Positions 9,544-61,066 of a stretch of DNA of 64,000 bases are shown one piece after another. The translations under genes and the position numbers were made by a program. The DNA lies in the NCBI GenBank assembly GCA_946415345.1, contig CAMKRY010000001.1:2115-66114 (forward strand), read 5' to 3'. The DNA comes from an uncultured Bacteroidales bacterium. GTDB taxonomy: Bacteria; Bacteroidota; Bacteroidia; Bacteroidales; UBA932. The notes beneath the pieces are model-generated. The model did not search any database. It was given only the letters and a program-made list of their open reading frames with translations, and had not been told where the DNA came from. The stretch's first letter is position 1. Every line of letters begins with the position of its first letter.

Positions 9544-10839
9544 TTATTCAAGGCCGGCGCGCACCAGCAGGGAGCTGTCGCCGTAGCTGAGGAATCGGAA
9601 TTGGTGCGAGAGGGCGTAATCGTAGATGCGGTGCCAGTCGTCGCCGACGAAGGCAGCGATCAGCAGCAGGAGCGTGCTTTCGCTCTGGTGGAAATTGGTA
9701 ACCATATAGTCCACGAGGCGGAACCGGAAGCCCGGGACGATGATGATGCGGGTACCGATGCGGAGCTCGCTGGCGCCATGGGATTCGAGGTAGGAGATGA
9801 TGGCGTCGAGGGCCTCGTCGGTGGAGATCTCATGAGATTTTGTCACATTCGTGACATCTCTCGTGGGCTCAGTGCCTTTGCCGACTCGGGTCTCGACTTC
9901 GCTCGAAATGACAAAGGGCTCGTAGGGATCCCACTGGGCGACGTCGGAGGGCTCGCCGTCGCGGAGGATGCGGGCGCCGGCGTAGTAGAGGGACTCGAGG
10001 GTGCGGACGGAGGTCGTACCGACGGCAATCAGCCGGCCTTGACGGTGGCGGATGGCCTTCAGCAACTCCAGGCTCACGGAAAACGGCTCCCGGTGCATCG
10101 TATGGCCGGCAATCTCGGAGGATTTCACGGGCAGGAAGGTGCCGGCGCCGACATGGAGGCAGACCTTGCGAATGTCCACGTTGCGGGCCCTGATGTCCTC
10201 CAGGACGGCGTCCGTGAAATGCAGGCCGGCGGTCGGAGCCGCCACGGAGCCGCGGATGCGCGCGTAGAGCGTCTGGTAGCGCTCGCTGTCAATGGCCTCG
10301 GATTCGCGGTTGAGATAGGGCGGAATCGGGATCGTTCCACAGATTTCCAGCACCCTGGAGAAGGGGTCGGGGGAGTCCCAGGTGAAACGGACCGTGCCGG
10401 TGCGCTCATCGCGGCCGAGGAGTTCGGCGCGCAGGTTCATGGCGCTGACGACTGGGTCGTTTTCGGGGTTCAGCAAGGTCAAGATGTCGTTTTTCCATCG
10501 CTTGGCGTTGCCGATTACGCATTTCCAGGCGCAGGTGCCGACTGCGGCGAAATTGAGGTTGTAGTCCGTCGGATCGGCCGGCTCGAGGCAGAAAATCTCT
10601 ATCTGTGCACCGGTTTCCCGCTGGAAATGGAGCCTGGCCGGAACGACACGGGTCTCGTTGAAGATCATCAGCGATCCTTCCGGCAGGAAAGAGGGGAGAG
10701 AGCGGAATACGTCTTCCAGTATCTCGCCCTTATGATAATAGAGGAGTTTCGATGCATCTCTCTGCTCGAGCGGATATTTGGCAATCCGGTCGTCGGTCAG
10801 GGGATAGCGGTAATCCTCCATATGAATCTCAGGAATCAT
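9544..10839 (-). CDS. queA: S-adenosylmethionine:tRNA ribosyltransferase-isomerase
   Basis: IPPYL, YQTLYA, GSVAAPTAGLHFT, LHVGAGTF, AVGTTSVRTLES, TNFH, FLSYGD. Confidence 0.95.
   Translation of the reverse strand: MIPEIHMEDYRYPLTDDRIAKYPLEQRDASKLLYYHKGEILEDVFRSLPSFLPEGSLMIFNETRVVPARLHFQRETGAQIEIFCLEPADPTDYNLNFAAVGTCAWKCVIGNAKRWKNDILTLLNPENDPVVSAMNLRAELLGRDERTGTVRFTWDSPDPFSRVLEICGTIPIPPYLNRESEAIDSERYQTLYARIRGSVAAPTAGLHFTDAVLEDIRARNVDIRKVCLHVGAGTFLPVKSSEIAGHTMHREPFSVSLELLKAIRHRQGRLIAVGTTSVRTLESLYYAGARILRDGEPSDVAQWDPYEPFVISSEVETRVGKGTEPTRDVTNVTKSHEISTDEALDAIISYLESHGASELRIGTRIIIVPGFRFRLVDYMVTNFHQSESTLLLLIAAFVGDDWHRIYDYALSHQFRFLSYGDSSLLVRAGLE
9824..9913 (-). repeat. REP type A with nested hairpin, in frame within queA
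   Basis: Minus strand TGTCATTTCGAGCGAAGTCGAGA...GAGATCT; inner TGTCAC-ATTC-GTGACA stem. Confidence 0.7.
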
Positions 10840-11319
10840 TCTTCGCGTATTGCAAAAATTCTACTGCGAAATTACACAATCTCGCGCAATTATTCAAACA
10901 AGCACTCTCTGTTCAGTTATCTAAACAATAGTTCGTGTATTTTACTCCATTTTTGCAAACGGTTTTAGAATCTTTACTTTAGGTTCTTGATTCTTCGTAA
11001 TTGTTTTAATAAGATTTTTTTATGTTATTTTTGCATAAAATGCAACTTATGTAAAATCAGTAATTTACTAGTTATTATATATACCTTTAGTAAAATAAAT
11101 ATTTAGGAAATTAAACGCAGTTCGGCGGAAAACCTATATAAAACAATTAATTAGTCATGTTTAATTAGCCAATTATCAGTTATATATATATTTTCTTCTT
11201 TATTTCTACTTTATGTGTTAATAGGCCTTATTTGCCATTTTGGGGCTAATGGTGGTTCTTTGTTTCCCCTTGCTTTTCTCCTGCTTTCTTTTTATTTTTG
11301 TGAAAAATTGTTTTCAAAA
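10840..11319. promoter_or_regulatory. very AT-rich 480-bp divergent intergenic region
   Basis: Sharp drop in GC; TATTTTTG box before the HTH start; TGTAAAAT and AATTATCAG motifs. Confidence 0.5.
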
Positions 11320-11694
11320 ATGAACAAGCGTTTGCTGCAGTTTTTAGCGGCCGAAAACATTACACAGACCCAGTTGGCGGAAACCCTCGATGTCGCGAAG
11401 GCCTCCGTTTCCAACATTTTAGCGGGCAGGAACCGTCCAGGCTATGATTTTATCGAATCGCTGATGCTCCACTACCCCTCGCTGAACATCGAGTGGCTGA
11501 TCACGGGAAAAGGCCGTATGTATCGCTCAGAGGCCGATTCTTCCCTCCCGGAGGACGGCTCTGCGGGATTATTATCTTCTACAGCTGAAGTACCAACTAT
11601 AGATAAAGTTAAGCAAACAATTGTAAATCAGCGCAAAATTACTTCAATCTGCGTCTTTTTCGATGACGGAACCTTCCAGGAGATCCGTGTTTGA
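11320..11694 (+). CDS. XRE-family helix-turn-helix protein
   Basis: ITQTQLAETLDVAKASVSNILAGRNRPG, EWLITGKG, C-terminal ICVFFDDGTFQE. Confidence 0.88.
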   Translation: MNKRLLQFLAAENITQTQLAETLDVAKASVSNILAGRNRPGYDFIESLMLHYPSLNIEWLITGKGRMYRSEADSSLPEDGSAGLLSSTAEVPTIDKVKQTIVNQRKITSICVFFDDGTFQEIRV

Positions 11695-11752
11695 GATGTG
11701 CATTTTCCCGGGCTGGTTATGAAATCCCCGGGATTTTGTGTATTTTTGCCTT

Positions 11753-12811
11753 ATGTTATACAAACTGCTGGTCAGACCGGTCCTGTCCCTTTTCCCGCCG
11801 GAGTCTTCGACAGGCGTACTGCTGCGGATGCTGAAAGGCGCCCGTCGCCTGCCGCTGGTCGCTCCGATCATCCGGGCAGGGCACCGCGTGAAAGACAAGT
11901 CCCTTGAGAAGGAGGTTTTCGGCATCCGTTTTTCGGCACCTGTCGGCGTTGCCGCGGGGCTGGACCGTTCGGGTGAGTATGCCGATCTTTTCTCCGATTT
12001 CGGCTTTTCTTTCATTGAAATTGGCTCCCTGACACCGCTTCCGCAGGACGTTGAGCCCCGGCCCAGGGTTTTCACCCTCCCGCGCGACAAGGCGCTCCTG
12101 AGCCGGACCGGCAACCCCAACAAAGGTGTCCAGCAGGCCATATCCGTCCTTTCCCGGCGCAATCCCAACCCTCGTACGCCCATCAGGATCGGCGTCAACA
12201 TCTCTGCCAATGCCCGAAGCCTCACAGACGAGGCCATCGTTTCGGATTATCGTACCTCCTTCGCGCAAATGTACGATTTCGCGGACTTTTTTGTCGTGAA
12301 TCTGACGGATTCGAGACGCCCGGATGCGGGCCTGCAGGCCGATACGGACTTGATGTCGGAGGTGCTGGACGAACTGCTGGAAATGCGCCTGGTCTATGAC
12401 GGCTACAAGCCCATCCTTCTGAAAATCTCTTCCGACCTGATGCCGGATCTACTCGATACCATCCTCGATTACGCGCTCCTTTCCGGCATCGACGGCATCG
12501 TCGCCGGCGGTCCTGCAGGGAGGAGCGCCGAACTGAAAACATCCCCCCAGCGGCTTCAGGAGCTGGGTGAAGGCGGCATTTCCGGCCGTCCCGCTTTCCA
12601 GGGCATGCTGGAGACCGTCCGTCATATCTCCGCCCGCAGCAAGGGTCGTCTGCCCGTTGTCGCCTGTGGCGGCATCCTGAGCCCGGAAGACGCCGAGATG
12701 GCCCTGGAAGCCGGTGCTTCGCTGGTGGAAGTCTATTCCGCCATTTGGTACCAGGGGCCGAAAATCGCCAAGAAAACCCATGACCACATCCTCCATCTGC
12801 ACGATCGGTGA
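11753..12811 (+). CDS. class 2 dihydroorotate dehydrogenase homologue with degenerate active site
   Basis: PVGVAAGLDR, FIEIGSLT, IGVNI, LLKIS, GGISG, ACGGI, VYS; lacks NRMGF, NISSPNT and TNTT. Confidence 0.8.
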   Translation: MLYKLLVRPVLSLFPPESSTGVLLRMLKGARRLPLVAPIIRAGHRVKDKSLEKEVFGIRFSAPVGVAAGLDRSGEYADLFSDFGFSFIEIGSLTPLPQDVEPRPRVFTLPRDKALLSRTGNPNKGVQQAISVLSRRNPNPRTPIRIGVNISANARSLTDEAIVSDYRTSFAQMYDFADFFVVNLTDSRRPDAGLQADTDLMSEVLDELLEMRLVYDGYKPILLKISSDLMPDLLDTILDYALLSGIDGIVAGGPAGRSAELKTSPQRLQELGEGGISGRPAFQGMLETVRHISARSKGRLPVVACGGILSPEDAEMALEAGASLVEVYSAIWYQGPKIAKKTHDHILHLHDR

Positions 12812-14033
12812 TGAGATTCTCATCGGCCAGGTCGTCGACACCAATTCCTCCCGGATTTCCCGCGCCCTCGGCGAACTAGGCATCCGGACTTCGCGCATGC
12901 TTTCCATAGGAGATTGCCGTGAGGACATCATCAACAATCTCCGTAAGGAGCTGTCTCAGAGCGATATTGTTATAGTCACCGGCGGCTTGGGCCCCACGAA
13001 GGACGATATTACCAAAGACGCTCTTCGCGAGCTTTCCGGCAGCCAGGGATACTATGAACATCCCGGCCAGCTGGCGAAGGTCCATGAAATCCTCCGCAGT
13101 CGCGGCCTGGACGTCCTTGACATCAACCGTGCACAGGCGCTTGTCCCCGATCGCGCGGAAGTCATCGTCAACCGCCTGGGAACGGCTCCCATTATGGTTT
13201 TCCGCCTCGAGGGCGGCAAAACCCTCTACGCCCTTCCCGGCGTTCCTTTCGAGGCTGTCGGGGCTCTCCCGGACGTGCTGGCCGACATTCAGGCCCATTA
13301 TCCACTGGAGAAGATCCGCCACCGCAACATCATGGTCTACGGCATCGCCGAGTCCGCCCTGTCCAAGAAGATCGAGGCCTGGGAGACAGCCCTGCCGGCG
13401 GACATGCACCTGGCTTATCTGCCGGATCCGCTTACGGGCATCCGTCTGCGCCTTTCGCAGTTCGGCGGGGGAGAGGACGGAGATCAGGCCCTGGAGGCCC
13501 AAATCGGGGCTTTAAAGGCCCTTCTTGGGGCTCTGGTGTACTCGGACCAGGATGACCGCCTGGAATGCGTCGTAGGCCGTCTTCTGAAGGCTGCCGGCCA
13601 AACCCTCTCTGCCGCAGAATCCTGCACGGGAGGAGAGATTGCCCACATGCTGACCGGCGTCCCCGGCAGCTCCGCATATTTCCTCGGTTCCGTGACTTCC
13701 TATGCCATCGCTGTCAAGGAGAGCGTCCTCGGCGTCCCGGCGGAGACCATCGACCGCTTCGGCGTGGTCAGTTCCGAGGTCGCCGCCGCCATGGCCGAAG
13801 GCGTCCGACGCCTGACCGGCAGCGACTGGTCCGTCGCCACGACCGGCCTCGCCGGACCCGACGGCGACGGGGTCAATCCGGTCGGAACGGTATGGATTGC
13901 GGTCGCTTCCAAGGTCGGAACGGTCACTGCGATGCGTCAATATAAAAACGACCGTTTGCACAATATCGAGCGTTTCGCAGCCTCCGCCCTTGATTTATTA
14001 CGCCTGGAAATCCAAAAACAATTAAATCGCTGA
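12780..14033 (+). CDS. cinA: CinA (MoCF-like domain plus NMN deamidase PncC)
   Basis: IGDEILIGQVVDTN, GGLGPTKDD, LPGVP, AESCTGG, TTGLAGP. Confidence 0.92.
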   Translation: MTTSSICTIGDEILIGQVVDTNSSRISRALGELGIRTSRMLSIGDCREDIINNLRKELSQSDIVIVTGGLGPTKDDITKDALRELSGSQGYYEHPGQLAKVHEILRSRGLDVLDINRAQALVPDRAEVIVNRLGTAPIMVFRLEGGKTLYALPGVPFEAVGALPDVLADIQAHYPLEKIRHRNIMVYGIAESALSKKIEAWETALPADMHLAYLPDPLTGIRLRLSQFGGGEDGDQALEAQIGALKALLGALVYSDQDDRLECVVGRLLKAAGQTLSAAESCTGGEIAHMLTGVPGSSAYFLGSVTSYAIAVKESVLGVPAETIDRFGVVSSEVAAAMAEGVRRLTGSDWSVATTGLAGPDGDGVNPVGTVWIAVASKVGTVTAMRQYKNDRLHNIERFAASALDLLRLEIQKQLNR

Positions 14034-14115
14034 TAATTCATTAATAAAACAATATTGTTAAATGCCGTAACATATTTGTTTCAAAACGGTTAAATATTGA
14101 TTATCAACGCATTCT

Positions 14116-14162
14116 AAAAAACGATCCCGACCCTCAAATCGAGGGGCGGGATTCGTCTTTTT
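14116..14162. terminator. bidirectional intrinsic terminator
   Basis: GC stem 14121-14156 flanked by A and T runs between convergent cinA and mscS. Confidence 0.65.
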
Positions 14163-14173
14163 GACTATTTTAC

Positions 14174-14200
14174 AGATGCCCGATCAGGTCGGGCATGACG
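14174..14200 (-). repeat. REP type B
   Basis: Exact reverse complement of 2603-2629. Confidence 0.85.
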
Positions 14201-14228
14201 GTAAATATGCTGCACGTAGCAGCATAAG

Positions 14229-15158
14229 TTAGCTCTGTTTGATGTGAACGTCGAGCTGCGGGAACGGGAAGGTAACGCCCTTCTTGGGGAGCTCGGTGTA
14301 GAGCGTCTCGTTCAGGAAGAAGAAGACGTCCCAGTAGTTTTCGGCACGGGTCCACGCGCGGACTACGTAGGTGACGCTGGTCTGCTTCAGATCGAGGACG
14401 GCGACGAACGGATCGGCGGCGCCTTCGGTCTTGCCGTTCAGAATCTTCGGGTTCGATGCGATGACCTCGAGGATGGCGGCTTTGGCCTTGTCTGCGTCGA
14501 CGCCGTAGGAGATGTTGATCTCGCGGTCCACGCGACGGAGGTCCTTCGAGGAATAGTTCAGGATGTTGCCGCCGGAGAGGGCACCGTTGGGGAGAATGAC
14601 GATGCGGTTGTCGAGGGTCAGAAGCTTCGTGGAAACCATAGAAACTTCCTGGACGATACCGGCAAAACCTAAAGCTTCGATGTAATCACCGGCCTTGAAA
14701 GGCTTGAAAGCCAAAATCATAATGCCTCCGGCAAAGTTCTGCACCGTGCCGCCGAGAGCCATACCGATGGCCATGCCGCCGGCAGCCAGGAGGGCCGCCA
14801 GAGAGCTGGTGTTGACGCCGAGGGAACCGACCGTGAGGATGATGATGATCACCCAGAGACCGATGGTGACGACGCTGACCGTGAAGGTGGCGATGGTCTT
14901 GTCCGTGCCTTTGCGTTCGAAGCCTCGTTTGAGGAGCTTCTTGATGCGGCGGACAATCCAGCCGCCGATGATGTAGATCGCGAGGGCGGCCAGGACCTTG
15001 AGACCGAAATTGATAGCTTCCTGGCCCAGACTGGTCATCAGTTCCTGCGGAGTGCTGGACGTGATGGTCTCTCGAATTGTCTGGACGCCTGCCTGCAGGG
15101 AATCCTGGCTGGCGAGTTTCTCGCCGAGCGGTGTCAAATCCTGTAAGAATGGAATCAT
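14229..15158 (-). CDS. mscS: small-conductance mechanosensitive channel
   Basis: AIGMALGGTVQNFAGG, KPFKAGD, LPNG, FPFPQLDVH. Confidence 0.9.
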   Translation of the reverse strand: MIPFLQDLTPLGEKLASQDSLQAGVQTIRETITSSTPQELMTSLGQEAINFGLKVLAALAIYIIGGWIVRRIKKLLKRGFERKGTDKTIATFTVSVVTIGLWVIIIILTVGSLGVNTSSLAALLAAGGMAIGMALGGTVQNFAGGIMILAFKPFKAGDYIEALGFAGIVQEVSMVSTKLLTLDNRIVILPNGALSGGNILNYSSKDLRRVDREINISYGVDADKAKAAILEVIASNPKILNGKTEGAADPFVAVLDLKQTSVTYVVRAWTRAENYWDVFFFLNETLYTELPKKGVTFPFPQLDVHIKQS

Positions 15159-15179
15159 ATGCGTAGTGTTTTGGTGTTA

Positions 15180-16469
15180 TCAGTCAAACAGACGGCTGAC
15201 CTGATCGATGATCTGGTCCTCCGGGAGATCGGGGCTGAGGACGAGGTCCGGAACGGCCATGAAATAGCCGCCGGCCTTGGCGCTTTCCTCGCCGCCGCCG
15301 GTGCAGTTGAGCATGACGATCTCGTTTTTCTTGACGCTGCCGTCCTTGACGGCCATGGCAAGGGAGGCCACGGCGCAGGCTGCTGCGGAATAGATGTCGA
15401 TGTGCTCGAGGGCGTTGAATTTGCGCTTCCAGTAGTTGATTTCCTCGTTGGTGACCTTGTACATGTCGCCCTTGGAGTCCTCGAGGGCATCGAACAAACC
15501 GCCCGCAAGACTGTACGGAGGTTTGCGGTTGGACAGCACCTTGGCGTCAATCTCGGCGGCCTTCATGCGGCCTTCCTCGGCGGTCATGGGCACAAGGGCG
15601 CGCTGGTGGGCCTTCCAGCTGTCGTACATCAGCGAGAAGGGGGCGTTCTGGGCGGCATAGAGGCGGGTCTTCTTGCGGCCGAAGCGGCCGTCGTCAATGA
15701 GGCGGAGGTTGTTCTCCCAGACGGCGATGGTGCCGGTGCCGGAGCCGACGGCCTGGAAATAGGCGTCGGGCAGCTCGCCGATGGCCTCGACGGCGCTCAG
15801 GAGGGTCGTTCCCATGCCATCGCGGCGGGCGACATTCTTGGCACCGCCCTCGGCGAGGAAGCGTTCGCTGCGGCAGAGCTTGTCTCCGAGCTGGATGGCG
15901 TCGAAATAGTCCGATCCACGGGGGCTGGAAATGATCTTGACGCAGGGACGGAGGCGCTTGTGGAACCACAGGGCGTCGATATTGTCGCGGGGGATGCAGA
16001 TGACGATAGGGATGTTGTTGTCCGAGCAGACCTGCGCGAAGGCGCGGGCAGTGTTGCCGGCACTCTGGACGACGAGGATCTTGTCGGTCTTTTTCGGCAG
16101 GCGGGCGCAGACGGAATAGGCTTCCGTGGCCTTGAACGAGCAGGTGGCGACTTCGGCGCCGATTTCAGGGGCGTAGCCGGTGAAGGTGATGTAGAGATTC
16201 TTCAGGCCGAGTTCCCGGGCGAGTCCCTTGCTCCGGTAGGTGACGGGACCCTGGGCATTCTTCAGGATGCGGCGGATCGGCAGCCAGGAGGCGTAGCGGT
16301 AGATGCCTTCCAGGTCTTCCCTGGGGGTGAAGAGCTTTTCATTGTAGACGGCCCTGACAAGGGAAGGGGAGGCGGATTCGGGATCCACGAGGGTCCAGCC
16401 TTTGTCCTTGAAGACGCGGCCGTCGGCCACGTTCATCAGTTCGTACTGAGTGGGGGTAAATCTGGGCAT
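15180..16469 (-). CDS. cysteate synthase (threonine synthase-like PLP enzyme)
   Basis: TCSFK PLP lysine, SAGNTARAF, NVARRDGMGT, FQAVGSGTG, VLSNRKPPY, LNCTGGG. Confidence 0.8.
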   Translation of the reverse strand: MPRFTPTQYELMNVADGRVFKDKGWTLVDPESASPSLVRAVYNEKLFTPREDLEGIYRYASWLPIRRILKNAQGPVTYRSKGLARELGLKNLYITFTGYAPEIGAEVATCSFKATEAYSVCARLPKKTDKILVVQSAGNTARAFAQVCSDNNIPIVICIPRDNIDALWFHKRLRPCVKIISSPRGSDYFDAIQLGDKLCRSERFLAEGGAKNVARRDGMGTTLLSAVEAIGELPDAYFQAVGSGTGTIAVWENNLRLIDDGRFGRKKTRLYAAQNAPFSLMYDSWKAHQRALVPMTAEEGRMKAAEIDAKVLSNRKPPYSLAGGLFDALEDSKGDMYKVTNEEINYWKRKFNALEHIDIYSAAACAVASLAMAVKDGSVKKNEIVMLNCTGGGEESAKAGGYFMAVPDLVLSPDLPEDQIIDQVSRLFD

Positions 16470-16475
16470 ATTCTC

Positions 16476-17435
16476 TTATAAATTATATATCAACCAGGAC
16501 ATGTAGCCGAGCCAGGTCAGCAGGAGCAGGGCTCCGTCGAAGCGGTCCAGCTTGTTGTTGCGGCCGGTCCAGGAAGCGGTCGCCAGCAGGATGCCGGCTA
16601 CCAGCAGCACCACCGCGTCGGCCCGGTCCATGCCGTTGAAAGACAACGGGGTCAGGAGGCCGGAAATGCCGAGGATCAGCAGGAGATTGAAAATGTTCGA
16701 GCCGATGATGTTGCCAAGGGCGAGCTGCCCCTTCTTTTTCGCGGCAGCGACTATGCAGGTAGCGAGTTCGGGCAGGGACGTGCCGATGGCGAGGACCGTA
16801 ATGGCGATGAATTTGTCGGAGGCACCGAGCATCCGGGCCAGGTGCGTGGCGCTGTTGACGAAGAGACGTCCGCCGAAGATCAGCGCCAGCAGGCCGAGGA
16901 GAATCATCAGCAGGGACAGCCACAGGGGGCTGATCTTGCCGGTCTCCTCATCCTCGGACGTCTTTCCGCTGCGGAGCATCCACCAGATGTAACCGGCGAA
17001 GGCTACGAGGAGGATCCCCGCGTCCAGGCGGCTGAGCGTATTGTCGCCGAAACCCAGCAGGGCGCCGGTCATGCCGAGCCCGAAGACCAGGACCGTGACG
17101 CCAAGGTGCATCGGGATGTCGATGCGGCGGTTGCTGCGGGTGATCAGCATCGGGAAGATCAAGGCCGTGATGCCGAGCCCGAAGAGGGTGTTGATGATGT
17201 TGGAACCCACGACGTTGCCGACGGCGATGTCTGCGTTGCCTTCCACGGCGCCGACCAGGCTGACCACCAGCTCCGGCGCGGATGTGCCGATGCCGACGAT
17301 CGTCATGCCGATGACGAATTCGCTGATGCGGAAGCGTCGGGCGATGCTCGAAGCACCGTCGACAAGCTTGTCCGCGCCGATTACGATCAGCGCCAGACCC
17401 AGCAGCAGAAGCAGTATGACCTGTGCGGTTTCCAT
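16476..17435 (-). CDS. calcium/sodium antiporter (YrbG/CaCA family)
   Basis: Two alpha repeats GTSAPE..GNVVGSN and GTSLPE..GNIIGSN. Confidence 0.92.
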   Translation of the reverse strand: METAQVILLLLLGLALIVIGADKLVDGASSIARRFRISEFVIGMTIVGIGTSAPELVVSLVGAVEGNADIAVGNVVGSNIINTLFGLGITALIFPMLITRSNRRIDIPMHLGVTVLVFGLGMTGALLGFGDNTLSRLDAGILLVAFAGYIWWMLRSGKTSEDEETGKISPLWLSLLMILLGLLALIFGGRLFVNSATHLARMLGASDKFIAITVLAIGTSLPELATCIVAAAKKKGQLALGNIIGSNIFNLLLILGISGLLTPLSFNGMDRADAVVLLVAGILLATASWTGRNNKLDRFDGALLLLTWLGYMSWLIYNL

Positions 17436-17451
17436 CTTTGCTCCAATCAAA

Positions 17452-17481
17452 CAAAGATAATCATTTTTCTTTGTATCTTTG
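17452..17481. promoter_or_regulatory. back-to-back -7 promoter boxes
   Basis: CAAAGATA (17452, minus-strand TATCTTTG) and TATCTTTG (17474) in a 52-bp divergent gap. Confidence 0.5.
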
Positions 17482-17487
17482 CGCTAT

Positions 17488-18990
17488 ATGAAGCAAATTA
17501 TTTATCAGATGCTGCCGCGACTCTGGGGGAACGGAAAGTTCTCCTCGGTCGATGCGGCCTTTCTAGGCTATCTTCGCGACGACCTGCGTGTCGACACGGT
17601 CTGGTATACCGGCGTGATCCGCCATGCCACGAAAAAGGCGGACGGGGGCTGCATCCCCGCCAAAGTCGTCAAAGGCGAGGCCGGATCGCCCTATGCCATA
17701 GCGGATTACTATGACGTCAATCCCTATCTCGCCGACGATCCGTCGCGGCGCATGGCCGAGTTCGAGGCTCTCCTGGCCCGCACCCATGCCGCCGGCCTGA
17801 AGGTGATCATCGATTTCATCCCCAATCATGTTGCCCGCGAGTACGACGGGACCATGACCCCGGCAGGGGAGACCCGCCTGGGCGCCGCCGATGACCCCAA
17901 TCAGCACTGGAAGGAGGAGAATGATTTCTACTATTATCCCGGCACGCCGCTGCGCCTTCCCGTGGACTGCGACGGCTATGCGGAATACCCTGCGCGGGCT
18001 TCCGGCAACAGTTTCACGCCTTCACCGGACGTGAACGACTGGTATGAGACCGTGAAACTGAATTATGGCGACAGCCATACGCCGACCTGGGACCGGATGC
18101 GAAATATTGTCCGTTTCTGGGCCGCCAAGGGCGTGGACGGCTTCCGCTGCGACATGGTGGAGCTGGTGCCGCCGGCTTATATGCGCTGGCTGATCGCCTC
18201 CGTCAAGGCCGAATTCCCCGGCGTCCGCTTCATTGCCGAGGTCTATGAAACCGAAAAATACCGGATGTATGTCGACGAAGTGGGATTCGACCTGCTCTAC
18301 GACAAGTCCGGCCTCTACGACCGCCTGCGTGCGGTGACCTGCGACGGCGCTTCGGCCCGTTGCCTGACGCAGAACTGGCAGATTCTGGGGGACCTCCAGG
18401 GAAACATGCTGAACTTTCTGGAGAATCACGACGAGCAGCGGGTGGCCTCGGATTTCTTTGCCGGTTCGGCGCAGAAGGGCTATGCCGCCCTGGCCGTATC
18501 GCTGCTGCAGAACGATGCCTCTCATATGCTCTATTTCGGGCAGGAGATCGGCGAGCGGGGCATGGACGACGAGCCTTTCAGCGGCGTCAACGGCCGTACC
18601 TCCATCTTCGACTGGTGGACGGTCGACTCGCTGGCGCGTCTTGAAAAATGGATCGGCAACCATCGCTGCGGACTGAACAAGGAGGAACGGGCCGTGCTGA
18701 CGCATTACCGCGAGCTTCTGGCCCTCTCTCGCCGGCCCGCTTTCGCGACGGGAAAGAGCTTCGACCTCTGCTATTGCCAGGGGGACTGGTTTGATGCCGA
18801 CCGGAACTATGCCTTCCTCCGCTGCGACGGAAAGCAGTGCTGGCTGGTGGCGGCGCATTTCGGTGATGGGCCGGTGCAGATGTCACTGCGGATTCCGCCG
18901 GAGGCAGGGGATTATTTCGGTCTGGAACTGCCGCCGGGCGTGCCGGTGGAGATTCCGGCCTGGGATGCTGTAACCATTAAAATATCGTAA
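17488..18990 (+). CDS. GH13 alpha-amylase family glycosyl hydrolase
   Basis: GSPYAIADY, DFIPNH, GVDGFRCD, FIAEVY, FLENHDE. Confidence 0.9.
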   Translation: MKQIIYQMLPRLWGNGKFSSVDAAFLGYLRDDLRVDTVWYTGVIRHATKKADGGCIPAKVVKGEAGSPYAIADYYDVNPYLADDPSRRMAEFEALLARTHAAGLKVIIDFIPNHVAREYDGTMTPAGETRLGAADDPNQHWKEENDFYYYPGTPLRLPVDCDGYAEYPARASGNSFTPSPDVNDWYETVKLNYGDSHTPTWDRMRNIVRFWAAKGVDGFRCDMVELVPPAYMRWLIASVKAEFPGVRFIAEVYETEKYRMYVDEVGFDLLYDKSGLYDRLRAVTCDGASARCLTQNWQILGDLQGNMLNFLENHDEQRVASDFFAGSAQKGYAALAVSLLQNDASHMLYFGQEIGERGMDDEPFSGVNGRTSIFDWWTVDSLARLEKWIGNHRCGLNKEERAVLTHYRELLALSRRPAFATGKSFDLCYCQGDWFDADRNYAFLRCDGKQCWLVAAHFGDGPVQMSLRIPPEAGDYFGLELPPGVPVEIPAWDAVTIKIS

Positions 18991-18991
18991 T

Positions 18992-19357
18992 ATGCGCAGA
19001 TGGATTCTTTTGGCGGCCCTGTCCATAGCCGCCGTGGCCTGCACCAGCAGCGCCGGCCGTTCTTCTTCTCCCGCGGCAGAGCCGGTCAATCCGGTCAATC
19101 CGGTGGATTCCCTCCTGGCGGTCATAGCCGGGCAATACGACTTGCCGGAGCAGACAGTAATGGCGCTGGCCGGAACCTATGGTGATTATCAGCTGAGTGA
19201 GGAAGACAGAAACCGGCTCGCAGAGGGTTTTGCGGCTGTTTCTCCCGTAGACGGGAAGCTTCATGACACGCTTCTTCCGGCTCTCAAAGAGGAACTCCGG
19301 CTCTGTGAGACCTTCGCGGATGTATGCCGGCGGCTGGGCCTGACTGTGGAGGAATGA
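18992..19357 (+). CDS. small lipoprotein (paralogue family)
   Basis: Lipobox AVAC; YQLSEEDR..L and ETFADV motif. Confidence 0.7.
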   Translation: MRRWILLAALSIAAVACTSSAGRSSSPAAEPVNPVNPVDSLLAVIAGQYDLPEQTVMALAGTYGDYQLSEEDRNRLAEGFAAVSPVDGKLHDTLLPALKEELRLCETFADVCRRLGLTVEE

Positions 19358-19411
19358 TTTGGCCGTATCGCAAAGTTTTCCTACTTTTGTAAACAACACA
19401 ACCCTTTAGAT

Positions 19412-19840: not shown

Positions 19841-19844
19841 GAAG

Positions 19845-20573
19845 GTGCTGACCGCCGCTCAAATCAAACTGATCCGCAGCCTCGCGCAGAAAAAGGAGCG
19901 CGAGGCTTGCGGTTTATTTGTCGTGGAGGGAGAGAAGATGGTCGCCGAGGCGCAGCGTTCCGGTTGGACCGTCGAAGCCGTCTATCGCGTGGAAGAGGTG
20001 GGGGAAAAGGCGATGGAACGGATGTCCCTGCTCGCGACCCCGTCTCCGGTGCTGGCCCTGGTCCGCATCCCGGAGACCGTCCGGAATGCTCCGGATCCCG
20101 GAAAGGGCCTCTATCTGGCCCTCGACGGCATCCGCGACCCCGGCAATCTCGGAACCATTCTCCGCATCGCCGACTGGTTCGGCATTGATGCGGTTTACGC
20201 CTCGCCCGACACGGCGGATCTCTTCAATCCGAAGGTCGTGCAGGCCACCATGGGCGCCCTATTCCGCGTCCGTTTCCATTATCGGGACATTCCCGGTCTC
20301 TGTCGCAAGGCCCTGAATGCCGGCGGCCGGGTTTACGGTACCTTCCTCGACGGGGAGAATCTCTATGGTAAGGCCCTTTCCTGCGGCGAGAACGCACCGT
20401 CGGTCATCGTCATCGGCAATGAGGCCCATGGCATCTCAAAAGAGACGGCCGCTGTCGTCAGCGACCGCCTCTACATTCCGCCTTTCCCGGCGGATGATCC
20501 CGGCTCGGAATCCCTCAATGCGGCCGTTGCAACGGCTGTCACCGTGGCGGAATTCCGTCGTAGGCAGGGTTAA
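19845..20573 (+). CDS. TrmH/SpoU family RNA methyltransferase
   Basis: DPGNLGTILR, IGNEAHG, ESLNAAVA; GTG start. Confidence 0.9.
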   Translation: MLTAAQIKLIRSLAQKKEREACGLFVVEGEKMVAEAQRSGWTVEAVYRVEEVGEKAMERMSLLATPSPVLALVRIPETVRNAPDPGKGLYLALDGIRDPGNLGTILRIADWFGIDAVYASPDTADLFNPKVVQATMGALFRVRFHYRDIPGLCRKALNAGGRVYGTFLDGENLYGKALSCGENAPSVIVIGNEAHGISKETAAVVSDRLYIPPFPADDPGSESLNAAVATAVTVAEFRRRQG

Positions 20574-27114: not shown

Positions 27115-27144
27115 AGATGCCCCGGACAGAGCCGGGGCATGACG
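27115..27144 (-). repeat. REP type B variant, possibly also a terminator
   Basis: AGATGCCCCGG-ACAGAG-CCGGGGCATGACG has the same ends as 14174-14200. Confidence 0.7.
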
Positions 27145-43911: not shown

Positions 43912-45272
<1,361 letters not shown>

Positions 45273-45276
<4 letters not shown>

Positions 45277-48769: not shown

Positions 48770-48846
48770 ACATTTGCCTTTTTGCGAAGCAAAGGTACGA
48801 AATATTCGCCGATAATACTTATATTTGTATAATTATATCAAGACCT

Positions 48847-49869: not shown

Positions 49870-49871
49870 CT

Positions 49872-51548: not shown

Positions 51549-51560
51549 CCGCAGACTGCA

Positions 51561-56165: not shown

Positions 56166-56859
56166 ACTCTATCTCATCCCCTCGCCCCTCGGCGAGAATG
56201 ATCCGGCGGAAGTGATTCCCGCGCCGGTGTTGTCCCGTCTGCAGCAGATCAAGGTCTATGTCGCCGAAGAGGTTCGGACCGTGCGCCGCTATCTCTCCCG
56301 TGCCGGTCTCAAGGGCCATATCGAGGAGCTGCAGTTCCATACCCTCAACGAGCACACGACGCAGCAGGAGGTCGAAAGCTACCTTCATCTCTTTGATGGC
56401 GGGCAGGATGTCGGTCTCATCTCCGAGGCGGGACTCCCGGCCGTCGCTGACCCCGGAGCCGCCCTGGTGGCGCTCTGCCAGCGCCATGGCATTGAAGTGG
56501 TTCCCTTTGTGGGCCCCTCCTCCCTGATGCTGGCCCTGATGGCCTCCGGCCTGAACGGTCAGTGCTTCTCCTTCCGGGGCTATCTTCCCGCCAAGACGGA
56601 AGAACGCCGCAGTGCCCTCCGCGGCCTCGAAAAACGCTCCGCCGCCGAACGGGAGACCGAAATCTTCATCGAAACGCCCTATCGCAACGACGCCATGCTG
56701 GCAGACCTGCTTTCCACCCTTCGCGATTCGACCCGCCTCACCCTGGCCGCCGACATCACCCTGCCGACGGAGTGGATCCGAACCCATACCGTCCGGGAAT
56801 GGAAAGCCTTGAAACCGGCTGTCGGCAAGCGTCCCTGCGTATTTCTGATCCTTGCCTGA
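56140..56859 (+). CDS. RsmI-like SAM-dependent (tetrapyrrole methylase fold) methyltransferase
   Basis: LYLIPSPLG, SEAGLPAVADPG, GPSS, FIETPYRN. Confidence 0.85.
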   Translation: MILREEKGKLYLIPSPLGENDPAEVIPAPVLSRLQQIKVYVAEEVRTVRRYLSRAGLKGHIEELQFHTLNEHTTQQEVESYLHLFDGGQDVGLISEAGLPAVADPGAALVALCQRHGIEVVPFVGPSSLMLALMASGLNGQCFSFRGYLPAKTEERRSALRGLEKRSAAERETEIFIETPYRNDAMLADLLSTLRDSTRLTLAADITLPTEWIRTHTVREWKALKPAVGKRPCVFLILA

Positions 56860-56860
56860 C

Positions 56861-58114
56861 ATGCCGCGCATTGCCTATCATACCCTGGGCTGCAAGCTCA
56901 ATTTCGCCGAGACGTCGACCTACCGCCGCGGTCTGGAAGCCGTCGGCTGCACGACCGTCCCCTGGAGCGCCGAAGCGGACGTCTATGTCCTGAACAGCTG
57001 CGCCGTCACGACCGTCGCCGAGAAGAAATCCCGCGGCCTGGTCCGTAACGTCCATCGCCGCTGCCCCGCAGCCAAGATCGTCGTCACCGGTTGCTACGCC
57101 GCTCTCCGCCCCGACGAAATCCGCGCCATCGACGGGGTCGCCCTGGTCCTCACCGACAAGGAAAAGACGGAGCTGGTGCCGCGTACATTGGCTTTGTTCG
57201 CAGACCCTGTCATTCCGAGCGGCAGCGAGGAATCTGTATCGCAGCTGCCCATGTTACCCGCCTATTCCGCTGGTGACAGGACGCGGTCGTTCCTGAAGGT
57301 ACAGGACGGGTGCGACAATTTCTGCGCGTACTGCACGGTGCCGTATGCCCGGGGTCGGAGCCGCAATCTGCCGCTTTGCGAGATTGTCCGGCAAGCGAAG
57401 GATATTGCGGCGCAGGGTGTGAAGGAAATCGTTCTGACGGGCGTGAACACGGGCGATTTCGGGCGGAGTACGGGCGAGTCCTTCCTGGACCTGCTGAAGG
57501 CGCTGAACGAGGTCGACGGCATTGCCCGCTACCGGATTTCTTCCATCGAACCCAACCTCCTGACCGAGGAGATCATCGACTGGATTGCCTCCGGGACCAA
57601 GTTCCTCCCCCATTTCCATATCCCGCTGCAGAGCGGCAGCGACTGGGTGCTCAAAAACGTCGGCCGGCGCTATGATACGGCGCTTTTTGCCTCGCGCATC
57701 GACCGCATCCGTGAGAAGATGGGCGACAGGGTCTTTTTCGGCATCGACATTATCGCCGGCCTGCCCGGCGAGACAGAGGAACGCTTTGAGGAGGGCTACC
57801 GCTTCCTGGCGGAACGGATCCGTCCTGCGTATCTGCATATCTTCCCCTATTCGCCTCGTCCTGGGACCCGCGCGGCCAAGATGCCGGACCAGGTGCGCGA
57901 CGGCATCAAAACGGAGCGGGTGGCCCGTCTGGAGGCCCTTTGCGAGGATCTTCATGCCGAATTCGTCGCTTCCTGCAAGGGAATGCACGAAACCGTTCTT
58001 TGGGAGGCGGCGGAGAAGGACGGAAAGATGGAAGGATATACCGGCAACTATATCCGGCTGGAGCGGCCCTATGACCCCGCCCTGGCCGGTCAATTGGAGG
58101 AGATTGTACTATGA
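56861..58114 (+). CDS. mtaB: tRNA methylthiotransferase
   Basis: TLGCKLNFAE, LNSCAVT, VTGCYA, LKVQDGCDNFCAYC, YSPRPGT. Confidence 0.88.
   Translation: MPRIAYHTLGCKLNFAETSTYRRGLEAVGCTTVPWSAEADVYVLNSCAVTTVAEKKSRGLVRNVHRRCPAAKIVVTGCYAALRPDEIRAIDGVALVLTDKEKTELVPRTLALFADPVIPSGSEESVSQLPMLPAYSAGDRTRSFLKVQDGCDNFCAYCTVPYARGRSRNLPLCEIVRQAKDIAAQGVKEIVLTGVNTGDFGRSTGESFLDLLKALNEVDGIARYRISSIEPNLLTEEIIDWIASGTKFLPHFHIPLQSGSDWVLKNVGRRYDTALFASRIDRIREKMGDRVFFGIDIIAGLPGETEERFEEGYRFLAERIRPAYLHIFPYSPRPGTRAAKMPDQVRDGIKTERVARLEALCEDLHAEFVASCKGMHETVLWEAAEKDGKMEGYTGNYIRLERPYDPALAGQLEEIVL
57208..57235 (+). repeat. REP type A in frame within mtaB
   Basis: TGTCATTCCGAGCGGCAGCGAGGAATCT, 24/28 identical to intergenic 2570-2597; encodes VIPSGSEES. 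Confidence 0.8.
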
Positions 58115-58977
58115 ACGGACCCAAACTGACCTTTTTCGGCACCGGGACCTCGCTGGGCGTCCCGATCAACGGCTGTCACTGCGAAGTCTGCACCAGCCCC
58201 GATCCGCGCGACAAGCGCTTCCGCTCCGCCGCTTTTGTGCAGTGGAACGGCCTGCAGATCCTCGTGGACGCCGGTCCTGATTTCCGCATGCAGATGCTGG
58301 CGCACGACGTCTGCCATCTCGACGCCATTCTTCTGACCCACAACCACAAGGACCATACGGGCGGCCTGGATGATGTCCGCGCGCTCAATTATGTCGACCG
58401 TCGGGCCATGGAGATTTACTGTGAGCAGCGCGTCCTGGATTACCTCAAGATCGACTACGGCTACGCTTTCGCCGAAAAGAAATATCCGGGCGCCCCGGAA
58501 TGGCATGTCCATCTGATTGACGAGCGGTCCTTCCGCGTCTTCGATACGCGGCAGGCTCCCGTCCTCGAGTGGGTCCACGATGTCGGCTATCGCTATGTCC
58601 CCGTGGAAGGCGTCCAGGAAGAACCGGAATCCGTCGAGGTCATCCCGATCCGCGGCTACCATGACCAACTGCCGGTGCTCGGTTTCCGTTTCGGCGACAT
58701 CGCCTACATTACCGACATGTCCCGCCTCCCCGATGAGGAACTCTCTAAACTGCAGGGCCTTCGGCATCTGACCCTCAATACCGTCAGCTATAAGCCCCAC
58801 CACAGCCATTTCTCGCTGGATGAGGCCATCGCCCTTTCAGAACGTATCGGTGCGGAACATACCTGGCTGACACATCTCAGCCACACCTTTCCCCGGCACG
58901 AGCTATTTGCAAAAAACCTTGCCGCCCGGACAGGAGGCAAGGTTCTTCCGGCCTTTGACGGCCTTACGATTGAATAA
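58111..58977 (+). CDS. MBL-fold metallo-hydrolase (PhnP-like)
   Basis: GTGTSLGVP, CxCxxC, THNHKDHTGGLDD, YITD, THLSH. Confidence 0.88.
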   Translation: MNGPKLTFFGTGTSLGVPINGCHCEVCTSPDPRDKRFRSAAFVQWNGLQILVDAGPDFRMQMLAHDVCHLDAILLTHNHKDHTGGLDDVRALNYVDRRAMEIYCEQRVLDYLKIDYGYAFAEKKYPGAPEWHVHLIDERSFRVFDTRQAPVLEWVHDVGYRYVPVEGVQEEPESVEVIPIRGYHDQLPVLGFRFGDIAYITDMSRLPDEELSKLQGLRHLTLNTVSYKPHHSHFSLDEAIALSERIGAEHTWLTHLSHTFPRHELFAKNLAARTGGKVLPAFDGLTIE

Positions 58978-58979
58978 GA

Positions 58980-59663
58980 TTATTCGAGCGTGCCGTTGTT
59001 GGCAGCCTCGATCATGTCCTCGTTGGCGGTGATGTAGATCTCGACGCGGCGGTTCTGGGCGCGGCCTTCGGCGGTCTCGTTGTCAGCGACCGGGAAGTCG
59101 TAGGCAAGACCCTGGGCGGTCATACGGCTGGTGGCGATACCGCATTTCTTGAGATACTTCTCGACAGCGTCAGCGCGGTTGTTGGAAACCTTCTGGTTCA
59201 CCTCATAGGTACCGGTGTTGTCCGTGTGACCGTAGATGGTGATGTTGGTCTCCTCCATGTCGGCCATCTTGTTGGCGAATTCCTGAAGCTCGGCCTTGGC
59301 GGAAGCGGAAAGCTCAGCCTTGTTGGTGTCGAAGAGGATACCGCCGTTGAAGGTCACCTTGATGCCCTTGAAACCGTTGACGTCCTCGACGGTCTCAATC
59401 TCGGCGTTCTGGAGAGCGGCGAGTTCTTCGGCCTTCTTGTCCATCTTCTTGCCGATGAGAGCACCTGTGCCGGCGCCAGCGGCCGTACCGATGGCAGCAC
59501 CGATGGCAGCGCTCTTGCCGTCCTTACCGATCAGGTAGCCGATACCGGCACCGAGAGCGGCACCTGCGCCGGAGCCGATCAGGGCACCGTTGGTGAGGTT
59601 GGACCATGCGCCGCAACCGACGATGAGCGGAGCGCAGACGAGGAAAAGGATGATTTTCTTCAT
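58980..59663 (-). CDS. OmpA-family lipoprotein with glycine zipper
   Basis: GAGAALGAGIG zipper, GHTDNTG, QNRRVEI. Confidence 0.9.
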   Translation of the reverse strand: MKKIILFLVCAPLIVGCGAWSNLTNGALIGSGAGAALGAGIGYLIGKDGKSAAIGAAIGTAAGAGTGALIGKKMDKKAEELAALQNAEIETVEDVNGFKGIKVTFNGGILFDTNKAELSASAKAELQEFANKMADMEETNITIYGHTDNTGTYEVNQKVSNNRADAVEKYLKKCGIATSRMTAQGLAYDFPVADNETAEGRAQNRRVEIYITANEDMIEAANNGTLE

Positions 59664-59755
59664 AGTTGTAAGGTATTAAGTGTTTGTGTTAAATGTCATG
59701 TTCGACCGATAAAGATAGCAATTTTATCAAACTAACACAAACTTTTCACCCCTTT

Positions 59756-61066
59756 TTAGTTAAACGTGAAGCGCACGCCGAAGAAGAACTCCGGCGCAAA
59801 CGGATGCTCGGAATACGCGTTTTCCAGTTCACTGCCGTTCGGAATATGCCAGCTGAAAGCCGGCTGGAGGAAGAAACTGAATCCCGGCAGCAGGTCCAGC
59901 TGCGCACCGGCACCGGCCTGCAGCGACCAGCGGTTGTCCTTGATGCGGGTCCGGTCGGTCTGATAGTCCCGGTTGTCACCGAGCGTCTGAAGCGTTGTCG
60001 TCCGTGTCCGGTAGGCGGTCTCGAACATGGGACCGGCCAATCCGTACAGGCTGAATCCCTTATGCCACCAGATCTTGTACTGTGCGTGCAGCGGGAAGCC
60101 GATATAATGCATGTCCCTTTCCGTCGTCGACTTCGCCAGGCCGCTTTCGCTGGCATAACTGGACTTCAGCTTTGTGAAGTAAAGACCACTCTCCATGCTC
60201 CAGCGACGGCCGATCGAAGCGCCGAAGGTAATGCCGAATCGCGAGGATCTTTGATGGACCGCATCGGTTACGCTCGGTTTGTTCCGGCTCAGCATCATCG
60301 GGTTGAGTCCCGCCGTCGTCCCAGCCGCCCGCATCATCGGCATGCCCGGATACGTCACCGGCAGGCCATATCCCGTCATCGTCCGCGACACATCCTGCGC
60401 CAGATACTGGCCCGTCGCCACCCCCGCCTTCAACTTCACCTCCGTCGGCTTCCGTACCTTATTATTCTTATTGCCTGTCACGGTCTCCTCCTTCCAGAAA
60501 TCGCTCTCATCTACCTTCTGCTCTTCTTTCTGTTCATTTCTCTCCTCCTCTTCCTTTTTTCCTTCTTCTGCTACGGTATTTTTATCAATAATAATATCAT
60601 TGTTGTCAATCTCACTACCGGTGAGCGATGAATCGGGAGTTGGCGATGAACCATCAGCAGGCGTGTCCACCCCCGGAGAAACACCCCAAGAATCGGAGAT
60701 TCTCGGGGGCCCCGTTATGCCAACCCTTCGGTCGTCGGGTTGAGTGAGCGAAGCGAGCGAATCCTGCTGATGGTTTATCGGCAGTTCCTCTTCGCTCTCC
60801 GGATTGTCGTGGACGTCGACAACTGCCAGAGATTTCTCAACTTCACTCGAAATGACAGTGTGGTCCTTGCGGAAAAGGAACACGCCGACGGCGACGCAGG
60901 CCGCGGCGGCAAGGGCGGCTGCCCCGTACCACCACCACGCTGCGGCGGCTTTCCTGCGTTTGGGTACCATGGCCCCCTGGACTGCGTCCCACAGTCCTTC
61001 GGGTTCCGCTTCGGTGTAGCCCTCGAAGAGCTCCGGAAGCTGGTCTGTCCAATTGTTTTTACTCAT
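59756..61066 (-). CDS. putative dual-membrane-spanning anti-sigma factor
   Basis: Short N-terminal domain (EPEGLWDAV), TM helix, long low-complexity linker, C-terminal beta-barrel ending GVRFTFN; overlaps the ECF sigma stop. Confidence 0.72.
   Translation of the reverse strand: MSKNNWTDQLPELFEGYTEAEPEGLWDAVQGAMVPKRRKAAAAWWWYGAAALAAAACVAVGVFLFRKDHTVISSEVEKSLAVVDVHDNPESEEELPINHQQDSLASLTQPDDRRVGITGPPRISDSWGVSPGVDTPADGSSPTPDSSLTGSEIDNNDIIIDKNTVAEEGKKEEEERNEQKEEQKVDESDFWKEETVTGNKNNKVRKPTEVKLKAGVATGQYLAQDVSRTMTGYGLPVTYPGMPMMRAAGTTAGLNPMMLSRNKPSVTDAVHQRSSRFGITFGASIGRRWSMESGLYFTKLKSSYASESGLAKSTTERDMHYIGFPLHAQYKIWWHKGFSLYGLAGPMFETAYRTRTTTLQTLGDNRDYQTDRTRIKDNRWSLQAGAGAQLDLLPGFSFFLQPAFSWHIPNGSELENAYSEHPFAPEFFFGVRFTFN
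60644..60780. mobile_element. ~137-bp nested hairpin element in frame in the anti-sigma linker
   Basis: IR CGATGAACCATCAGCAGG / CCTGCTGATGGTTTATCG; AGGCGTGTCCACCCCCGGA identical to 5814-5832. Confidence 0.75.
60830..60857 (-). repeat. REP type A in frame in the anti-sigma gene
   Basis: Minus strand TGTCATTTCGAGTGAAGTTGAGAAATCT, 23/28 to 2570-2597; encodes VISSEVEKS. Confidence 0.72.

Follow-up and report, generated by a model that had tools for sequence, protein, structure and literature searches.

In-frame and intergenic copies of CGTC-type hairpin repeats in a Cryptobacteroides-like Bacteroidales genome

Palindromic repeats within four genes

The stretch of DNA analysed here (64,000 nt; "the window") lies on contig C1 of a metagenome-assembled genome (MAG) of an uncultured Bacteroidales bacterium from a Cryptobacteroides-like, gut/rumen lineage. 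It carries short palindromic repeats between genes and also within four protein-coding genes: queA, ispG, mtaB, and a gene for an anti-sigma/outer membrane protein (OMP). An earlier note on the window had listed these four coding sites, and all of them are present in the sequence and in frame (Table 1). The source MAG, referred to as G000, comprises 1.34 Mb in 75 contigs with 58.7% G+C and is 56% complete. Its closest relative, a rumen MAG of 2.02 Mb in 22 contigs (G085), is syntenic with G000 at ~85% nucleotide identity, and the site-by-site comparisons were made mostly with this one relative. Coordinates without a contig prefix are window positions.

The cleanest of the four cases is queA, where the Pfam match on the product is split around the insert. 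The element starts with GTCAT, ends with AAATCT, contains a unique-looking inner hairpin, and adds ~26 residues (VISSEVE...NVTK) to QueA; the repeat-derived stretch corresponds to residues 309-339 and is in frame. Exactly these 26 residues are missing in 16 congeners and in two genomes of other families, and the insert is also missing in 49 further genomes from a species-level collection. The G085 orthologue differs by a single 78-nt block that runs from GTCAT to AAATCT, and the element is therefore a long form of subfamily A, described below, rather than a nested pair of unrelated elements. In the AlphaFold model of QueA (mean predicted local distance difference test score, pLDDT, of 81), residues 313-335 form an unstructured segment with pLDDT below 50, flanked by two confident helices.

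The same 78-nt block was found at two other places. A 95%-identical copy lies in the G085 rho gene, in frame, in the disordered N-terminal region of Rho, where it reads ...SSEAETRDGKGTEPARDVTNVTKSP...; the flanking genes, by comparison with these composite copies, are only ~85% identical. The third copy (84% identity) lies between genes at G000 C9:19216-19305. For the inner 50 nt of the queA insert, just one diverged copy exists elsewhere in G000. A protein-database search with the 40-residue insert region matched only the QueA itself and one Rho, and the 78-nt long form is therefore rare; long forms measure 78-90 nt. QueA here has ~405 residues; a further QueA-like gene, shorter (~355 residues) and ~32% identical, is present in most genomes of the genus and order.

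In mtaB, an A variant with an ATTCC/GGAAT stem encodes PVIPSGSEES in the linker between the UPF0004 and radical-SAM domains. Across 29 congeners this linker is hypervariable, and in some of them it contains other repeat-like peptides; mtaB consequently offers no clean empty site; the G085 gene possibly holds a decayed remnant at the same place. Several congeners have long inserts in the MtaB linker with recurring peptides such as SALRQAQGPK, which suggests yet another in-frame repeat family.

In the anti-sigma/OMP protein, a long low-complexity linker joins an N-terminal membrane helix to a C-terminal OMP beta-barrel. Its gene contains a short subfamily A copy that encodes VISSEVEKS and falls just after the membrane helix, and a much larger palindrome in the same linker. 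The G000 and G085 proteins are identical up to the membrane helix and divergent afterwards, and the same disordered linker of the G085 orthologue holds different repeat-derived peptides (SVIPSASEES and DARSESGMT).

The ispG palindrome has perfect 19-bp arms that occur nowhere else in G000; its similarity to subfamily A2 is limited to a core of 12-16 nt, on the minus strand. The conserved native IspG segment (IVSSMTS...GRKATA) is retained, with synonymous variation, by most congeners; in a few, the loop is short. In G085, the same IspG loop holds a different and longer repeat-derived insert of 61 residues (C18, ~17320-17500), with AASSLR/SNAD in threefold tandem and a perfect 18-nt palindrome; the loop is therefore a recurrent landing site. 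The large anti-sigma palindrome also has locus-specific arms (~17 bp), and it shares a 19-36-nt block with a larger repeat family represented at 5761-5995 and a GAGCGAAGCGAG core with A2. Both palindromes lack the GTCAT and ATCT ends and have only a core motif in common with the short repeats. The idea that one palindromic family occupies all four genes thus applies fully to queA, mtaB, and the 28-nt anti-sigma copy, and only through that core to the ispG and large anti-sigma palindromes.

Table 1. Positions of the repeats, their host genes, the five subfamilies, and Y1/HUH-like open reading frames (ORFs) of G000
Feature	Position	Strand	Description
queA	9544-10839	-	S-adenosylmethionine (SAM):tRNA ribosyltransferase-isomerase, long form; Pfam PF02547, E 5e-94
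queA element	9835-9912	-	78 nt; long form of A; GTCAT start, AAATCT end
ispG	43912-45276	+	PF04551
ispG palindrome	44694-44786	+	93 nt; perfect 19-bp arms; in frame
mtaB	56852-58114	+	UPF0004 and radical-SAM Pfam domains
mtaB copy	57208-57235	+	28 nt; A variant; in frame
Anti-sigma/OMP gene	59756-61066	-	downstream of extracytoplasmic function (ECF) sigma factor gene
Anti-sigma short copy	60830-60857	-	28 nt; subfamily A; in frame
Anti-sigma large palindrome	60644-60780	-	137 nt; in frame; 46 residues
Intergenic pair	2570-2629	+	head-to-tail; A (2570-2597) then B (2603-2629)
Intergenic copy	14174-14200	-	subfamily B
Intergenic copy	27115-27144	-	subfamily-C-like; 10-bp stem
Intergenic copy	4446-4472	+	degenerate B, 78% identical to 2603 copy; edge of ~260-nt multi-stem element
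Subfamily A, examples	2570-2597; 60830-60857	+; -
Subfamily A2			34-nt form
Subfamily B, example	2603-2629		stem 8 bp, loop 5 nt
Subfamily C, variant	27115-27144	-	subfamily stem 9 bp, loop 5 nt
Subfamily E			opens AT...AT; preceding base C
Y1/HUH-like ORF	G000 C9:7194-8063
Y1/HUH-like ORF	G000 C4:16905-17798	-
Y1/HUH-like ORF	G000 C8:33087-34034
Y1/HUH-like ORFs, three more

Anatomy of the repeat unit

Alignment of all copies with their flanks defines a hairpin unit of 25-34 nt, with most units measuring 27-29 nt. The unit begins with C/T-GTC, of which the GTC tag is unpaired. The stem starts at the following AT; after the loop, the second half of the stem ends in AT and is followed by a tail of CT and a variable base, which does not match a CCA consensus. 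The constant ends are GTCAT and ATCT, and the flanks outside the element ends are not conserved. The copies fall into five subfamilies, A, A2, B, C, and E (also written REP-A and so on, for repetitive extragenic palindrome), and the base before the constant GTCAT is C in B, C, and E and T in A. The stem opens AT...AT in every subfamily. Between subfamilies, the stems vary by paired changes and the ends stay constant. Variants with 6-nt loops exist beside the 5-nt loops of B and C, and contiguous pairing in A, A2, and E extends over only 5-6 pairs, their stems being bulged and their central parts longer.

A target-site duplication was looked for at the clean empty sites described below, and none was seen. 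The possibility that the repeats are MITEs (miniature transposable elements with inverted repeats), a class marked by direct target-site duplication and conserved terminal inverted repeats, was rejected: the units are single hairpins without target duplication, and the ispG and anti-sigma palindromes have arms that recur at no other locus.

Abundance of the repeats and chance expectation

The most frequent 14-mers of G000 all come from a few hairpin repeats, with 20-25 exact occurrences each. Two counts of the family were made, one using the loose pattern GTCAT-N17-20-ATCT and a stricter one using matches at the level of the subfamilies. The stricter count gives 102 copies in G000 and none in the reversed genome; for G085, it gives 216 copies, with 0-1 in reversed controls. 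In the window, the loose pattern is matched 10 times where 1.6 matches are expected, and the matches at 20409, 24847, 39775, and 45482 are chance hits.

These chance hits raise the question of whether the coding matches in general are chance or convergent codon patterns, MAG assembly artefacts, or miscalled ORFs. Within genes, loose-pattern matches number 73, compared with 40-54 in codon-order shuffles, in which GTCAT-N-ATC with at least five stem pairs arises that often because GTC and ATC are favoured codons; the reversed-genome control of the loose pattern, with seven matches, is too lenient as a baseline. Only subfamily-level matches are therefore diagnostic, and 42 of these are genic in G000, compared with 0-1 in five codon-order shuffles. 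The codon-shuffle comparison proposed in the earlier note thus separates the genic copies from chance at the subfamily level; the loose pattern has a high background. Some near-end "inside" calls do reflect a wrong start or an overlap (e.g., C7:9357 and C43:3570), but Pfam shows the host ORFs to encode conserved proteins at full length, the differences between aligned orthologues are discrete in-frame indels, and the same elements behave in the same way in the independently assembled G085. An origin by chance or artefact is exceedingly improbable, being refuted by the empty orthologue sites, the comparison with G085, and the shuffle controls. These data confirm that the family is real and more than chance.

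The copies are unevenly distributed with respect to genes. The 102 copies of G000 divide into 33 that are deep genic (at least 45 nt inside an ORF with a high coding score), 9 at an ORF edge or in a weak ORF, 14 overlapping gene ends, and 46 intergenic; in G085, 65 of 216 copies are deep genic. The density is ~34-47 copies per 100 kb of non-coding sequence and ~3.5-4.6 per 100 kb of coding sequence, a ten-fold difference in G000 (~34 vs. ~3.5). With about one third of the copies read through, the repeats have the appearance that the earlier note ascribed to them, that of a non-autonomous family adding peptides to proteins.

The subfamilies differ in abundance between genomes. Subfamily B dominates in G000, with 18 identical copies, and subfamily C dominates in G085, with 40. 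Using an exact pattern, REP-B was found in 16 of 36 congeners at 1-45 copies each, and the reversed-pattern control was zero everywhere. REP-B was absent from 24 other families of the order, each represented by one genome and searched with the exact pattern, which diverged relatives would escape. These data show lineage-specific expansion of subfamilies and recent spread.

Genic copies and their orthologous sites

Genic copies are found in many conserved genes, the identities of which were confirmed by Pfam. DNA polymerase I (PolA) and an OstA-like protein host three elements each, and MnmA, a 605-residue protein, hosts two. Other hosts are UvrA, Mfd, the DNA polymerase III delta-prime subunit (HolB), a CCA-adding/poly(A) polymerase family enzyme, GH92 and GH88 glycosidases, altronate dehydratase (UxaA), a UDP-glucose dehydrogenase family enzyme, an M24 aminopeptidase, MsrA, Lnt, and a GT4 glycosyltransferase. 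The copies are in frame and free of stops, and they use both orientations and several frames. The pooled genic copies of G000 and G085 nevertheless show a strong bias: the VISSEVEKS frame accounts for 17 of 23 A copies and the SFHGLSVES frame for 21 of 42 C copies, each out of five stop-free frames. The favoured frames are Ser/Glu/Asp-rich, which fits selection on the encoded peptide. The earlier note had described a common strand and frame for the coding copies; this holds for REP-A, but the other subfamilies follow no such rule.

Alignment of flanking sequences resolved 22 of the G000 genic sites against G085: 10 are empty, 4 hold the same subfamily, and 8 hold another subfamily. Reciprocally, G085 genic sites are empty in G000 in nine cases, hold the same subfamily in two, and hold a different one in eight. 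The net length difference is a multiple of three at 17 of 19 genic empty sites, compared with 9 of 24 intergenic ones, as predicted by translation through the inserts. Among the clean empty sites, the insert measures 39 nt for the OstA-like gene, 30 nt for a THUMP-like gene, 27 nt for the glycosyltransferase gene, and 33 nt for the CCA-adding enzyme, where it falls at the C-terminus. In PolA and UxaA, G000 and G085 hold different elements in the same loop, and this loop is short in three to five other congeners. The earlier note had pointed to empty orthologue sites as a check, and these are clean for queA and present for many genes relative to G085; ispG instead shows replacement, and mtaB has the hypervariable linker described above. 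The comparisons demonstrate gain and loss between close genomes, frame-preserving survival within genes, and placement in loops and linkers.

The form of these differences bears on how the copies arise. Rather than by insertion, they could arise by templated patch repair or template switching, where a hairpin-prone ectopic copy, used as template in the course of replication or break repair, would overwrite a short stretch at microhomology and sometimes produce local inverted duplications. Such a process would account for replacement rather than insertion in ispG, UvrA, and UxaA, although selection on loop length after insertion could mimic replacement. It would also account for the use of the same sites by different subfamilies, but re-use is expected anyway if each protein has few permissive loops. 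Empty sites often hold bases of the element ends, as with CCTGTCA in the CCA-adding enzyme gene and GGGCAATCT in the THUMP-like gene; however, such microhomology in gapped alignments is partly an artefact of the aligner, and there are clean whole-unit insertions with non-homologous flanks (34 nt at C43:10147 and 39 nt at C13:8162). Inverted duplication is consistent with the perfect, locus-specific inverted arms of the ispG and anti-sigma palindromes, with the left arm of ispG starting in conserved native R-Y codons, and with a short palindrome after the ATCT end in queA. No target duplication was seen and no dedicated transposase is evident, which is also in line with templating. On balance, templated repair is an unlikely explanation for the copies.

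Intergenic copies and their arrangement

Most of the intergenic sites given in the earlier note are genuine: those at 2570, 2603, 14174, and 27115 are clear copies, those at 4446 and ~6300 are degenerate, and the one at 5771 belongs to another family. The copy at 14174-14200 is absent at the orthologous G085 site. The 60-nt A/B pair, as at 2570-2629, recurs as a unit at at least four places in G085. Head-to-tail pairs (7 in G000 and 28 in G085) mostly have a fixed 6-7-nt spacer, and head-to-head pairs (5 and 15, respectively) are the minority arrangement.

The intergenic copies of G000 lie between convergent genes in 21 cases, between unidirectional genes in 31, and between divergent genes in 3, against a spacer background of 81 convergent and 117 divergent; the median distance to the end of the upstream gene is 12 nt. 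This position near 3' gene ends could mean that the repeats serve the host in the first place, whether as RNA hairpins involved in transcript stability or termination or as DNA sites bound by proteins, and that genic copies are retained for such a role rather than just tolerated. The conservation of stems by paired changes between subfamilies and the large number of identical copies are consistent with function. However, congeners contain anywhere from 0 to 45 copies, the dominant subfamily is not the same in G000 and G085, the genic sites are polymorphic and lie in unrelated proteins, and the ten-fold lower genic density is as expected of tolerated insertions. A primary function of this kind is considered improbable.

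Search for a mobilising gene

The earlier note had suggested that a RAYT/TnpA-Y1 gene (RAYT, REP-associated tyrosine transposase) or a GIY-YIG gene flanked by the repeats might mobilise them, and no gene in such an arrangement was found. A GIY-YIG mobiliser was rejected after a profile search. G000 contains six Y1/HUH-like ORFs, three of which are located in Table 1; they have weak PF01797 matches, ~290-330 residues, and low codon-bias scores, and their products have an NHVH (HUH) motif and a Y-x-x-N-P/S motif. A RAYT-type arrangement was rejected because none of the six is flanked by repeats. By motif, the proteins resemble the class 2 Y1 proteins without cognate REPs (PMC6006769).

The Y1/HUH-like family is multi-copy, with up to 13 copies in congeners and none in ~10 of 60 genomes sampled. 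All 16 REP-B-positive congeners have it, and REP-B is missing from the six genomes that lack it; 14 further genomes, however, have the Y1/HUH-like genes but no REP-B, and the genomes are related to one another. This co-occurrence is suggestive only and was not used as evidence. The Y1/HUH-like genes are no more than candidate mobilisers.

Relation to known palindromic repeats

Bacterial REPs were sorted into GTAG- and CGTC-tagged superfamilies by Di Nocera, De Gregorio, and Rocco (2013, BMC Genomics 14:522, PMC3733652). As that survey describes them, CGTC REPs (families CGTC-1 to -4) carry a CGTC tag that is unpaired and often takes the form TGTC or CCTC, a stem of 8-9 bp, nearly always with A-T at its opening, a loop of 4-5 nt, and a short tail that is mostly CCA; they occur mostly as head-to-head dimers, with head-to-tail arrangements negligible (PMC3733652). 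They are reported there from five phyla including Bacteroidetes, with intragenic in-frame copies in several species and phyla, many of them in replication and repair genes such as uvrA (PMC3733652). The survey associates no transposase gene with the CGTC class, states that most REPs are intergenic, and speculates that the CGTC families may be on the way to extinction; how these repeats move, and whether they are still moving, is left open there (PMC3733652).

The earlier note knew of no described Bacteroidales equivalent. Given the survey's record of CGTC REPs in Bacteroidetes, an equivalent class has been described, and the novelty is therefore smaller than had been assumed. Literature searches by exact repeat sequence, genus, and general terms found nothing on this genus, these sequences, or Bacteroidales specifically. 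The repeats studied here resemble CGTC REPs in the unpaired C/T-GTC tag, the A-T stem opening, the presence of several subfamilies per genome, the location mainly downstream of genes and between convergent or unidirectional genes, the in-frame intragenic copies (notably in uvrA and polA), and the lack of a transposase gene flanked by repeats. The described stem and loop lengths are found only in B (8 bp) and C (9 bp); in A, A2, and E the stems are shorter and bulged and the loops longer, and a 78-90-nt long form exists. About 30% of copies are intragenic here, which looks high beside the mostly intergenic REPs of the survey, and there is direct evidence of recent turnover where the survey's text speculates about extinction (PMC3733652). 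Judged by these features, the repeats are best classed as a new member of the CGTC-tagged REP superfamily, the principle itself having already been described.

The analogy drawn in the earlier note with Rickettsia palindromic elements (RPEs) is well founded. RPE-6 and RPE-4 of R. conorii are equated in the survey with CGTC-1 and CGTC-4, and thus carry the same tag (PMC3733652); the link made here follows that report of a common tag. Both systems place palindromes in frame in genes for functional proteins, at permissive surface positions, with insert-free orthologues. The hosts differ, Rickettsia being an obligate intracellular alphaproteobacterium and the present lineage free-living gut/rumen Bacteroidales, and the units here are mostly 27-29 nt, whereas RPE-1 is described in the survey as "longer palindromic insertions" (PMC3733652). 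Another relative in this class is dRS3 of Neisseria, equated with CGTC-1, most Neisseria elements lying in large clusters according to the same source (PMC3733652). The repeats of G000 have the same class of tag as dRS3 and a similarly clustered arrangement. We know of no in-frame genic role for dRS3.

A further point of comparison is the REPIN/RAYT system, in which, as Bertels and Rainey reportedly described in 2011, GTAG-tagged REPs are mobilised by REP-associated tyrosine transposases. The likeness lies in short hairpins with an unpaired tag at the foot, the likely use of single-strand intermediates, and the presence of Y1/HUH-like genes in the genome. The differences are that the tag here is C/T-GTC rather than GTAG, that no Y1 gene is flanked by repeats, and that inverted doublets are a minority.

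Proposed origin of the genic copies

The explanation that best accommodates these observations, and one that is very probably correct, is that CGTC-type hairpin repeats multiplied as non-autonomous DNA in this Cryptobacteroides-like lineage, with selection sorting the copies. New hairpin copies would land, or be templated, at many places. Intergenic copies would then persist freely, mostly just downstream of genes, and genic survivors would be those that keep the frame, have no stop codon, encode a tolerable, mostly Ser/Glu/Asp-rich peptide, and occupy a loop or linker. The ribosome would read such copies as 9-46 extra residues. Movement might take place as single-stranded hairpins through a trans-acting enzyme. 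The insert peptides are presumably made, and presumably neutral or nearly so.

Several observations weigh against this explanation. The ispG palindrome replaces a ~21-residue native segment rather than simply inserting, and in UvrA and UxaA as well native codons are replaced with little net change in length, which cut-and-paste insertion does not predict. At 16 genic sites, G000 and G085 hold different subfamilies; this could reflect targeting or templated conversion and not random insertion with selection. The repeats depart from the CGTC class in having a CT-N tail, in place of CCA, and mostly head-to-tail arrays, spaced at a fixed 6-7 nt. With respect to a mobiliser, the PF01541 profile search for GIY-YIG domains in G000 matched UvrC only, and the Y1/HUH-like genes have no repeats within 1.5 kb, bar one chance neighbour inside an adjacent gene. 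It is frame conservation that points to translation of the inserts. Finally, completeness of G000 is low, and the gene calls came from a self-trained codon-bias caller made for this analysis, which called 90% of G000 as coding.

A more specific proposal is that CGTC REPs are currently active in this lineage and spread by hairpin-templated patching instead of classical transposition. Patching would overwrite short stretches, re-use sites with different subfamilies, build head-to-tail arrays with a fixed spacer, and leave locus-specific inverted duplications. The proposal is a doubtful one. If it were true, the lineage would be the first tractable system for studying how the "orphan" CGTC class moves, and the repeats would be a steady source of new protein linkers.

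In principle, in-frame palindromic repeats are nothing new: the Rickettsia RPEs made them known, and a more general account followed in 2013. The present data contribute a free-living, abundant gut/rumen lineage with about one third of ~100-200 copies in genes, hosts that include core enzymes of replication, repair, and tRNA modification, and clear signs that copies were recently gained, lost, and replaced between genomes of 85% identity. Copy numbers in the many congeneric MAGs range from 0 to more than 45, and these genomes lend themselves to a comparative search for the responsible gene. Where the recurrent peptides VISSEVEKS, SFHGLSVES, MPDQVGHD, and DSTDKPWND turn up in annotation, they mark repeat-derived segments and should not be taken for functional motifs.

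Larger elements at two of the intergenic sites

The degenerate B copy at 4446-4472 adjoins a ~260-nt multi-stem element (4466-4722) that is found at at least 12 places in G085 with 81-89% identity. Several of these G085 copies lie ~100 nt from a REP-A/REP-B pair. The element is probably a separate, MITE-like family.

The site at 5771 is part of a different and larger palindromic element (5761-5995) with a folding energy of -129 kcal/mol. Copies are present on contigs C75 (96% identical), C4, C40, and C36, and also in G085. A diverged copy lies at G000 C19:12809-12945, inside the gene for the 605-residue MnmA, and this larger family therefore also occurs within coding sequence.

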